Origin: an uncultured Candidatus Rokubacteria bacterium
GTDB taxonomy: Bacteria; Methylomirabilota; Methylomirabilia; Rokubacteriales; DASRDR01
Assembly (NCBI GenBank): GCA_963708025.1
Contig: CAVPSB010000014.1
Location: 1-64,000, forward strand
Length of the DNA: 64,000 bases
Direction: 5' to 3'
A program made the position numbers and the translations under genes. Under the pieces are notes generated by a model that saw nothing but the letters and a program-made list of their open reading frames with translations, was not told where the DNA came from and ran no database searches. This document shows positions 18,900-21,999 of the stretch, in pieces (the first letter of the stretch is position 1; each line of letters begins with the position of its first letter).

Positions 18900-19922
18900 C
18901 AGTGACGGGGCGCGGCGGGGGTGACCCCTTATCCGGACGCGGCCTCCGTGGAAGGGCTTCGGAAGCCTACACCCTTATTCGCCTCTTTTCACCAGCGCTT
19001 CGAGCCACGAGGTGGCCCGTAGTGTCCGAATATTCGGCCCGGCCCGTAGTGTCCGAAAACTCATCCCGTGCTCAGGGCTCAGGCCGCGCGGTGGTAGTAC
19101 CGCAACAGCCCGCCCAGCCGGTCCCGACAACGGACGTGGGTCCCGCCCGGGGCCGGGGCTGCCGGGGTGATCAACTCGTTGCCGAGCCCCTGATGGTTCC
19201 GCTCCCCGTGGTAGTGCGCCACGAACTCGTCGAAGGCGCGGAGCAGCCGACGCTCCCCGAACAGGATCAGGCGGTCGAGACACTCCGCGCGGATCGAGCG
19301 CACGAAGCGTTCCGCGTAGGCGTTGGCATTCGGCGCCTGGACTGGCGTCAGCACGATCCGCACGCCCGCGCCTTGGACGATGCGGCGGAAGCCGTCCGTC
19401 CACTTGCTGTCGCGATCGCAGATGAGGACGCGGTGGCCCGCCAGGAAGCCATCGACCGCGTCGGTCAGTCGCCGCGCCGCCTGCGCCATGAACCACGCAT
19501 CCGGGGTCGGGGTCGAGCCCGCCACGTGGACCCGTCGGCTCCGGAGATCGATCACGAAGAGCGTGTAGTACGTGATCAGCCCTCGAGGGGTCCAGACCTC
19601 GCTGGTGAAGAAGTCGGCCCCCGCGATCGCGCCCCAGTGGGCCCGCAGGAAGGTCCGCCAGGACGACGGCCGGTCCGGCGCGGGCGGGATCCCGTGGTCT
19701 TTCAGGACTCTTGGCGACCGTACTCCGGGCCACGTCGTGACCCAGGTTCTTCAGCGCGCCCTGGATTCGCGTGTAGCCCCACGCCGGATTCTCCGTGGCC
19801 ATCCGCACAATGAGCGACGAGATCTCCTTCATGATCCCGGGACGGCCTGGCCGGTTCGGCGTGACCGTCCACTTCCGGGGCGATCAGCTGCCGGTGCCAT
19901 CGCAGACTTTCTCTGGTCCATG

Positions 19923-21152
19923 TCAAGCGATTTTTTTCGCGCGCTGCCGCAGCTGCTGTCGCGTCATCGTCGCCAGGTGGTACTGCTCGTCATACGGCAC
20001 CTGGCGCTCCCACAGGACGAAGATGATCTTCACCCACTTCGCGCCCAACGCCCGGAGGGCCTCGCGATGCGAATGGCCCCGCGCCCGCTGCGCGTCGTAG
20101 TACGCTCGCGTCCACTCACTCGAGCGCAGCGAGAGGAAGGCCACCTGGTCGACCACGTACCGCAACATCTTGTCGCAAGCGAAGCGGAAGTGGACGACGT
20201 GCTGCCTGCCGCTCTTCACGGTCACGGGCACGGCGCCGGCGTGCGCCTGCAGATGCTGAAACGACTCCCACCGCCCGGGGGCATCCCCCAGCCGCGCCCA
20301 GAGCGTGGGTGCGGTGACCCCATGCTCACCGATCGGGAGCGTCCGGATCCACTGCGCCGCCGGCATGGCTGCGAAAAAATCCTCGACCGCCTGCCGGTAG
20401 GCCCCGACGGCCGCGACCACCGCCCCCAGCTCGGTCACCAGGGCCTGCATCAGCCGGGCCTTGGCCCGCACGACGTGGGCCGGCACCGGCAGCTGCGGCC
20501 GCTGCAGGACGGCCCAGAGCTCCTGGGTTCGGGCCTCGCTCAGCCGATGGGCGCGCGCCCACCGCTGCCACTGGCGTTCGGTGAGGGCCGCCACGGCCGC
20601 CGGCGTGGGATAGGCCTTCAGGAACTCCCGCGCCAGAGCCGTCGTCAACTCCGCCACCTCCAGGCCGCGGGGATAGTACGCCTTCAGCGTGGCCGTGAGC
20701 TGGTTGACCAGGCGCGTCTGCTGCCGGATCTGCCGCTGGCAGTCCTCCGTGAGGAGCTTGAGCTCTTGGGCCGCCTCCGAGCTCGGCTGCAAGGCCTGGA
20801 GGCGTCCGTGATCCGTGCGGAGGAAGTCGGCCAGCACGCGGGCGTCAAACGGATCACTCTTCGCCCCACCCTGGCGAAACCGATCCCGCGCCCGGTCCAA
20901 TGCCTTGGGGTTCACCGGGTAGACCACGACGCCATGGTCGAGCAGGAAATCCACCACCCGGCCCTCGGGTCGCTCAATCGCCGCCCACAGCTCGATCCCC
21001 TGGGCCTGCCACTCGTGGAGCTCGCGGCCCCACTCGCTGAAGCCCGCCGCCGTGTGCGGCACCGTGCGACTCGTGACCTTCGTGCCGTGCTCCTCCAGGA
21101 CCCAGACCGCATGCTGCTGATCGGCCCAGTCGACTCCCAGGTAGTAGCGCAT
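19923..21152 (-). CDS. IS110-family DEDD recombinase
   Basis: GVDWA, AIE, KSDPFDA (DEDD); C-terminal AHAGAVPVTVKSG with the conserved Ser; intact 409 aa. Confidence 0.95.
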   Translation of the reverse strand: MRYYLGVDWADQQHAVWVLEEHGTKVTSRTVPHTAAGFSEWGRELHEWQAQGIELWAAIERPEGRVVDFLLDHGVVVYPVNPKALDRARDRFRQGGAKSDPFDARVLADFLRTDHGRLQALQPSSEAAQELKLLTEDCQRQIRQQTRLVNQLTATLKAYYPRGLEVAELTTALAREFLKAYPTPAAVAALTERQWQRWARAHRLSEARTQELWAVLQRPQLPVPAHVVRAKARLMQALVTELGAVVAAVGAYRQAVEDFFAAMPAAQWIRTLPIGEHGVTAPTLWARLGDAPGRWESFQHLQAHAGAVPVTVKSGRQHVVHFRFACDKMLRYVVDQVAFLSLRSSEWTRAYYDAQRARGHSHREALRALGAKWVKIIFVLWERQVPYDEQYHLATMTRQQLRQRAKKIA

Positions 21153-21194
21153 TCAGCGTCTCCTCCCGCTCAGTCTCGGTCGTGCCCGGCCCGG

Positions 21195-21443
21195 AGAGGT
21201 GTGAACGGCAAGGTTGGCCTTATACCGGCCCTCCGGGGGGCGACTTTCTCTGGAACCTTCGGCGCCGTTCTCTTGTCGACCGGGACAGTCTGCGATTGAG
21301 CCTCCGGGGGCTCGGAACGTGTTGGTCCTCTGGTCAACAAGTCCCCTCATGCTTGGTGAAGGGCCGCCTCTCTCACCTCTACCAGCCATCTCTTCCTGCC
21401 ATCTCTTCCTAACGGCCGGATAGAGCATCTCTTCGTCGGCCGG
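21195..21443 (-). ncRNA. Predicted IS110 bridge RNA (target-binding and donor-binding loops)
   Basis: Two stem-enclosed internal loops whose strands match the insertion target and the circle junction; ends approximate. Confidence 0.82.
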
Positions 21444-21999
21444 ACAGAGTATAAGGATCGTGTCGGGCGTGACGATGGTCGCGACCTGCCTCAAGACCAG
21501 TCGGCCGAGTCGGCGACCTTTCGCCGCAAAGCGACGGCGCTGATCATCGGTCAGCCGGAGGCGGCGCCCCTTCACCCGCTCCTTCAGGACGCGGTTCTCC
21601 TCCACAAGGTACTCGATGACGTGCTGTTGGTGCGGTTGACCCATCCCGCGAGGGTCACGAGCAGCACGCGCAAGGGCGAGAGGTCGGCAATCATTCGAAG
21701 ATTCTACCGTGGCCGACCACGGGCAGCCCAGAGCTACAGCTCGGCCGAATATTCGGACAGTACGGGAGGACGCGACCTTCGTGAACCCGGGGGTTCTCCA
21801 CGCCGGGACAGGGGAGAACATCGTGTCGCACGCTGAGCTCCGCTTCAAGGTCCGAGGGAAACGGATGAGATCTGCGGGGGAGGAGCCCCCCCGGCGTGTC
21901 GGGGCGGTGACCAGGGAATCACCGTCGTGATAGGCTGCTCCCGGAACCCAGGTTGCACTACGGTTGCACTGTTTGGTGCGGTTTGGAGGAATTTGGAGA

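Follow-up and report, generated by a model that had tools for sequence, protein, structure and literature searches.

A divergent IS110-subgroup element predicted to encode a bridge RNA with a 15 bp target site

IS621 of E. coli, the reference for the locus described here, has been reported to combine a recombinase of 326 aa with a bridge RNA of 177 nt and a site of 14 nt (Durrant et al. 2024, PMC11208160; Hiraizumi et al. 2024, PMC11208158). According to these two reports, its left guide has 9 nt, spans the second core base (T) and reads 7 flank bases, its right target guide has 4 nt in the natural element and can be extended to 7, and its right donor guide is a discontiguous 9 nt with two flipped-out U's. 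Durrant et al. (PMC11208160) also describe orthologues in which the right target guide is longer than in IS621. IS622, or ISCro4 (Perry et al. 2025, 10.1101/2025.05.14.653916), is a system of the same class as the present element that differs from it in clade and host (Citrobacter), and its recognition sequence is given as 14 nt. In Pseudomonas putida, the IS110 element ISPpu10 is described as bridge-RNA-guided, with a left guide that tolerates distal and some internal mismatches and a right guide that is stringent over 5 positions (10.64898/2026.03.19.712850). Bridge recombinases are under development as programmable tools to insert, invert and excise DNA, and most of this work concerns the enterobacterial IS621 and IS622. 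In a search of the literature on guide-length variation, none of the papers listed used the phrase "guide length".

The window (the whole stretch of DNA analysed, 64,000 nt) contains an intact IS110-group element on the minus strand. The first-pass annotation had recognized in its left end a bridge RNA with four readable guides and, possibly, an extended recognition site of 18 bp. The features discussed below are the following.

19904..21455, minus strand: IS110-group element, intact, including the CT core copies of both junctions, identified from the sequence
21466-21456, minus strand: left flank, CCGACACGATC
21456..21463, minus strand: left target, positions -8 to -1, ACACGATC, read by the left target guide
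21455-21454, minus strand: left core, CT
21453-21449, minus strand: start of the left end (LE), TATAC
21448..21453, minus strand: TATACT, -10 box formed only on circularisation, including the right donor TATAC
21342..21441, minus strand: predicted 5' leader of the bridge RNA, about 100 nt, with a putative start
21272..21341, minus strand: target-binding loop module (folds, and covariation of helices 1 and 2)
21314..21322, minus strand: left target guide (sequence and covariation)
21290..21296, minus strand: right target guide AUCGCAG, reverse complement of CT plus GCGAT (7/7)
21288..21289, minus strand: handshake guide of the target loop, AC, which complements the final GT of the right end
21204..21269, minus strand: donor-binding loop module (fold, and covariation of helices 3-5)
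21243..21251, minus strand: left donor guide AGAGAAAGU, identical to 19914-19906, the 9 nt in which the right end terminates
21219..21225, minus strand: right donor guide GUAUAAG, exact reverse complement of CT plus TATAC
21218-21217, minus strand: donor-loop handshake guide GC, directly 3' of the right donor guide
21167-21160, minus strand: ribosome-binding site, GGGAGGAG
19923..21152, minus strand: recombinase gene, 409 aa, intact (Pfam, NCBIfam and alignment to the IS621 structure)
19921..19926, minus strand: TTGACA, -35 box in the right end, overlapping the recombinase stop codon
last base 19906, minus strand: right end (RE), ...CCAGAGAAAGT
19905-19904, minus strand: right core, CT
19903-19899, minus strand: right flank GCGAT, the right target (+1 to +5), which the right target guide reads along with the core

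The element proper corresponds to 19906-21453, and its insertion adds 1550 bp if one core copy is counted. As read from the sequence, the termini (TATACTCTGT and ACTTTCTCTG) are not inverted repeats; this lack of terminal inverted repeats, the 2-nt core at both junctions and the precise insertion are features of the IS110 subgroup. A non-coding left end of 301 nt (21453-21153) lies 5' of the recombinase gene, and the right end is minimal, with 17 nt past the stop codon (19922-19906). That the boundaries are real is confirmed by an empty site in the same genome. Another contig carries an uninterrupted paralogue of the host gene, ...CCCCCGACACGATC-TT-GCGATGGCACC... (left target, core and right target being ACACGATC-TT-GCGAT), with 87% identity to the left flank and 93% to the right flank, and at the junction it differs from the occupied site only by the 1550-bp insert and by TT instead of CT. 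Since this paralogue lacks the 1550 bp, the insertion corresponds exactly to the element plus one core copy. Public runs were compared as assembled contigs (four runs). Contigs of two of them (X2 and X10, the latter labelled as possible RNA by a guess in its record) jump over exactly 1550 bp between 19903 and 21454, with an ambiguity of 2 nt, and two runs show the TT-core form; this is a weak indication, the short sides being of 24-26 nt and the matching sides of 21-48 nt at 90% likeness. No joint of the right end to the left end was listed for these runs.

Both flanks are parts of an integrase gene of IS481/IS3-like type (rve_3, 2.2e-10; NCBIfam IS481, 9.6e-14). This IS481-like transposase gene is itself a pseudogene broken by frameshifts (window 18975-19903 and 21456-21700), and the insertion lies in the Leu codon (CTG) of its D-T-I-L-R-W-H (DTILRWH) motif, where CTG versus TTG is a synonymous difference. 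Several relatives of the element (L011 and L038) are likewise inserted in transposase-like genes. A whole-genome pattern search allowing one mismatch yielded three other near-target sites, with cores TT, TT and CA, and no CT-core target elsewhere in the genome. These paralogous sites (G000 C41:10256-10576, C2:367301-367315 and C11:65754-65768) carry the same 13 flank bases with a TT or CA core and are unoccupied.

The recombinase presented both the N-terminal DEDD RuvC-like and the C-terminal Tnp (Ser) domains in Pfam, with DEDD_Tnp_IS110 (PF01548, 1.8e-34) and Transposase_20 (PF02371, 1.6e-7) passing their cutoffs, and it matched NCBIfam NF033542 ("IS110 family RNA-guided transposase") over the full length with 124.7 bits, under the cutoff of 140. 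Among relatives, structures have been solved only for the IS621 and ISCro4 transposases: the IS621 structure 8wt6 aligned at E 7.5e-7, a weak similarity, and the C-terminal Tnp domain of ISCro4 (PDB 9t56) at E 3.7e-5. In the alignment to 8wt6, D8, D100, D103 and S314 stood opposite D11, D102, D105 and S241, which are given together with E60 as the catalytic residues of IS621 (PMC11208158). The Glu was not cleanly placed, E60 falling opposite W55 with E52 and E59 close by.

Besides the four catalytic residues that could be aligned, the locus shares with IS621 a long non-coding left end before the recombinase and a very short right end, a CT core, a predicted promoter rebuilt across the circle junction, and a 5' part preceding target- and donor-binding internal loops, both of which hold a small hairpin. 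The left guides are in top-strand sense, the right ones are its reverse complement, core included, and each of the latter is followed 3' by handshake bases. As far as can be judged from sequence, the locus would work like IS621, and among the defining features examined the exceptions are the unplaced Glu and the lack of an Rfam match. It is, very probably, a complete IS110-subgroup insertion sequence of 1550 bp whose left end encodes a bridge RNA with an 8 + 2 + 5 target, transcription, RNA binding and recombination being attributed to it by homology with IS621. Structure, covariation of guides with targets, donor and handshake matches, protein domains and the empty site all agree with the first-pass annotation in its reading of a bridge RNA of the IS110 type, in which the two target guides (left, then right) precede the two donor guides (left, then right), with a polarity of strands as in IS621 and with CT as the core. 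The element is nevertheless unlike IS621 in several traits. Its recombinase has 409 aa instead of 326 aa, with the weak sequence similarity mentioned above, and the predicted RNA has about 240 nt versus 177 nt, being longer because of a poorly conserved leader of about 100 nt. Its left target guide takes in 8 bases of the flank and, at most, the first base of the core, the right target guide in its natural form has 7 nt rather than 4 nt, and the 7 nt of the right donor guide are contiguous.

We predict that circularisation would create a sigma-70 promoter, TTGACA-N17-TATACT. In the joined ends, TTGACA is followed by 15 nt plus the 2-nt core (17 nt) and by TATACT; the integrated copy has ATCGTC at the place of the -35 box. 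Junction promoters have been reported for IS110 elements (PMC11208160). Among the related right ends, a hexamer was found at the same spacing in 30 of 41 (TTGACA in 25, TTGACG in 4 and TTGATA in 1), and it was one base closer in 10 and two bases closer in the remaining one. The left end started with TATACT in 26 of 39 relatives and with TATATG, TATATC, TATATA or TTTATG in the other 13.

In the mechanism that we propose, excision to a circle would join the right end to the left end and build this promoter across the core, and the promoter would drive a bridge RNA of about 240 nt (approximately 21441 to 21204) made of a variable 5' leader and two stem-enclosed internal loops. AUCGCAG would read the top strand of the core and right target, whereas in the donor-binding loop AGAGAAAGU would read the right end and GUAUAAG the core and left end. 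Once strands are exchanged, the two bases 3' of each right-hand guide would serve the other DNA as handshake guides, and the 409-aa DEDD/Ser recombinase, together with the RNA, would recombine the circle junction and the target at the CT core.

The leader displays three exact copies of GAAGAGAUG (21434-21426, 21408-21400 and 21395-21387), and a 16-nt direct repeat of the left-end terminus is present at 21452-21437 and 21428-21413 (88% identical). It is not conserved, relatives carrying instead a purine-rich stretch and a different hairpin. In four relatives (L014, L015, L017 and L018) the left end is about 80-90 nt longer, for an element of 1602-1611 bp versus 1477-1550 in the others. L034 and L041 probably belong to the same subgroup, as judged from the left-end distance; their right ends were not found, and no element length is given for them. 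The extra sequence of this subgroup sits between the terminus and the target loop.

The element is present in one copy in the 8.17-Mb assembly, where besides itself only a weak match of 76 nt was found. An IS110 element that looks intact and no longer moves in its host, even if its RNA may still be made, could account for this single copy, for the TT, TT or CA cores of the three other near-target sites and for a left target guide that is mismatched to the site it occupies. Against this, the ORF is full-length with the catalytic residues in place (those four that could be aligned), the stems, guides and promoter boxes are all intact, and relatives with 90% identity are multicopy in another assembly, a single related assembly contributing 12 loci. 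In natural elements, moreover, one or two guide mismatches are usual according to Durrant et al. (PMC11208160). We believe that such an immobile relic is unlikely, although it is an explanation to be kept in mind, and we favour a complete bridge-RNA element.

Because of the single copy in its own genome, the comparison of targets was moved to related genomes. A scan of one genome per species yielded 48 loci with 32-90% identity in the best aligned segment, mostly from Methylomirabilota/Rokubacteria assemblies, and 39 of them (59-90% identity) could be parsed, providing 30 distinct target loops. BLAST and MAFFT showed that conservation of the left end was confined to the part matching 21341-21203. 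When 37 related loci were aligned with the window (38 rows), the scaffold was conserved and both target guides were hypervariable. The near-invariant scaffold comprised GAGGACC, the GAGCC/GGCUC hairpin, AGACUGUCCC and the entire second loop.

As proposed in the first-pass annotation, both loops were enclosed by stems in the minimum-free-energy folds. In the target module, an outer stem (21341-21325 with 21286-21272) surrounds an internal loop and the hairpin GAGCC/GGCUC at 21313-21298. The donor module has an outer stem of AACGGCG (21269-21263) with UGCCGUU (21210-21204), an inner stem of AGGUU (21258-21254) with AACCU (21215-21211) and a GCCC/GGGC hairpin at 21241-21228; the pair A21258-U21211 is specific to the window copy and lies outside the pairs counted for covariation. 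The fold energy was no better than that of shuffles (z of -1.39, -1.03 and -1.30 for stretches of 293, 151 and 100 nt, not significant) and, since it is not distinctive, the structure rests on covariation. An Rfam 15 scan of 19800-21600 with E up to 10 gave no relevant match, the four hits listed being at chance level (E 3-10) and to unrelated families. Covariation was counted on 32 distinct aligned sequences for 5 helices and 36 pairs. Standard pairs were formed in 93.0% of the cells versus 86.7% in shuffles, changes on both sides were seen in 18 of the 36 pairs versus 8.5 in shuffles, and none of 500 shuffles reached any of the five structure measures. When the 3' partner was slid by 1-3 columns, the paired cells were 30-48%. 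By module, helices 1 and 2 of the target loop had 93.7% and 93.1% of their cells paired, with 10 pairs changed on both sides, and helices 3-5 of the donor loop had 89.9-98.4%, with 8 such pairs. This covariation supports two internal loops that are enclosed by stems and have a hairpin at their centre.

All four guide strings were found where the first-pass annotation had placed them and, read on the minus strand, they matched as it had described. In the window copy, ACACGUUC (21322-21315) matched the left target from -8 to -1 in 7 of 8 positions, the mismatch being U21317 versus A at -3, and C21314 matched the first core base. For the longer string CCAACACGUUCC (21325-21314) compared with the left target plus the first core base, 10 of 12 positions matched, with mismatches at 21323 and 21317. 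To compare each left guide with its own left flank we allowed register offsets of -1, 0 and +1, applied equally to the permuted controls. A fixed register across all loci had been tried and failed in the subgroups with another hairpin length.

Under these conditions, guides and flanks varied together, far above the permuted pairings (39 loci, 30 distinct loops). From -8 to -1 the matches were 21, 31, 29, 33, 31, 27, 33 and 35 of 35 distinct pairs, for permuted means of 0.34-0.82, with at most 1 of 1000 permutations reaching each observed value, and the result was unchanged with one locus per distinct loop (n=30). Position -3 was the weakest of the left target within the footprint, and internal guide mismatches were common among the relatives. 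On the right side, the second core position matched in all 27 distinct pairs and positions +1 to +5 in 27, 26, 25, 26 and 23 of 27 (permuted, about 0.3; 0 of 1000 permutations reaching these values). The CC-core elements L027, L028, L043 and L044 and the CA-core element L035 were changed accordingly in their right target guide as well as in their right donor guide. Their CC or CA cores are present at both junctions. This match profile agrees with the left-guide tolerance and right-guide stringency described for ISPpu10. The latter is reported to use 6 left-guide positions (6 + 2 + 5) and to need a target stem-loop (10.64898/2026.03.19.712850); the footprint found here is 8 + 2 + 5, and the target lies in a coding motif.

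Two of the 30 distinct loops were off-pattern: L035, with a one-base shift in the register of the left guide, and L011, with 5 matches at best to its own flanks. L011 (556-1776 match), which belongs to the multicopy related assembly, sits at GTGGCGCGC-CT-TTCTC, a site that is not specified by its own guides, and this site is specified exactly by the guides of its siblings L012 and L038, which have the same donor ends. Mobilisation in trans by the bridge RNA of a sibling, recombination between copies or an assembly chimera could each explain L011.

In the donor loop, the 9-mer of the left donor guide matched the right end in 28-29 of 29 relatives at every position, and it tracked the right-end subtype, following the G/T and A/G differences between subgroups. 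The right donor guide was a contiguous 7-mer, with the eighth position matching in 5 of 35. It followed TATAC versus TATAT as well as the CT, CC and CA cores, the complement of the core being GG or UG with a CC or CA core. Handshake bases of the kind described for IS621 (PMC11208158) were also consistent across relatives. The first position of the target-loop handshake guide was complementary to the right end in 29 of 29 and the second in 25 of 29, and the donor-loop handshake guide complemented the left-target -1 and -2 bases in 34 and 27 of 35, respectively, with GG pairing with targets ending in CC.

The first-pass annotation had counted 11 + 2 + 5 = 18 bp in the target and 12 contiguous bases in the donor, and neither length was borne out by the relatives. 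In the window copy, CCAGAGAAAGUC (21253-21242) does match the right end plus the core C in 12 of 12 positions, since C21253, C21252 and C21242, beside the 9-mer, match too. Across the relatives, the base before the left donor guide (-10) matched the right end in 9 of 29 and the base after it was the core C in 8 of 29, being instead a G paired within the hairpin in 16 of 32. These comparative data exclude a lengthened donor match as a trait of the family, as far as the aligned sequences tell. It could still be that the window copy alone has gained C21253 and C21252 (RE -11 and -10) and C21242 (core C) in its donor loop, for a contiguous donor duplex of 12 bp, and that the scaffold CC could stack on left-target -10/-11. 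We consider this very doubtful. For C21242 to match the core C, a base pair of the hairpin is given up, and this pair is retained in half of the relatives. If the extra pairs did form, they would be a natural example of lengthened bridge-RNA recognition.

On the target side, the whole 12-mer had been taken as left target guide. Its loop bases from 21322 down did covary with the flank (-8 to -1), whereas C21325, rather than being a loop base, closes the stem of the loop as a C-G pair in 32 of 32 sequences, C21324 is an invariant linker C (31 of 32) and 21323, opposite -9, is a mismatch in the window copy. For positions -9, -10 and -11 the matches were 9/35, 13/28 and 4/6 among the 35 distinct pairs (permuted means of 0.36, 0.53 and 0.45) and, with one locus per distinct loop (30), 7/30, 11/24 and 4/6 (0.38, 0.56 and 0.46), values that were reached by 978, 880 and 113 of 1000 permutations. 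A fixed-register count of the 19 loops with the length of that of the window gave a match at -8 in 14 of 19 and at -9 in 4 of 19, and right positions +6 to +10 were at background (6, 6, 2, 6 and 13 of 27). Because the left-target covariation stops at -8, the footprint on the target is 8 + 2 + 5; we predict a specified target of 15 bp and a donor of 9 + 2 + 5 = 16 bp. The difference from the 14-nt site of IS621 is one base, not four. The loop base opposite -9 matched below the permuted level (7/30 versus a mean of 0.38), which may be noise or may reflect avoidance of pairing at the loop entry.

A recognition more specific than that of IS621, with the window copy reading 18 bp of target and 12 contiguous donor bases, is consistent with the identity of CC at 21325-21324 to left-target -11 and -10 and with the 12/12 donor match, and at donor positions -9 and -11 neither the RNA nor the DNA varies among relatives, which puts them outside the reach of covariation. 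Considering, however, that this CC is scaffold, that -9 is mismatched in the window copy itself, that -9 to -11 do no better than permuted pairs in the 30 loops and +6 to +10 stay at background, and that the donor matches at -10 and at the core C are found in a minority of relatives and opposed by the hairpin-paired G, we find extended recognition highly improbable, and retain the 15 bp target. That the left end is instead a transposase 5' UTR or promoter, with the four matches a coincidence or a by-product of terminal repeats, would suit the ordinary fold energy and the lack of an Rfam match, but it is almost certainly wrong, given guides that change with the flanks locus by locus on a fixed scaffold, compensatory stem changes in half of the pairs, and a core, right target guide and right donor guide that change together in CC- and CA-core elements.

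To judge from the alignments, the element and its approximately 40 relatives, mostly of Methylomirabilota/Rokubacteria, form a divergent clade of putative IS110 bridge-RNA elements. The clade is characterized by a larger recombinase (409 aa), an RNA that is longer, a right donor guide without interruption, a footprint of 8 nt on the left target, and natural CT, CC or CA cores with matching guides. It represents a clean natural data set on the positions that are read and a possible source of new orthologues, without the jump in specificity that could be hoped for from an 18-bp site.

Contigs of other samples also carried related left ends with other guides. The X1, X2 and X10 contigs matched on the hairpin side and then diverged within the left guide or the target-loop hairpin (21304-21315). 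Among the four such contigs listed, three began at the 3' end of the guide (21313-21315) and one was identical to the L009/L015/L041 type. These divergent guides indicate that many guide variants of the element circulate in soil and bog metagenomes.
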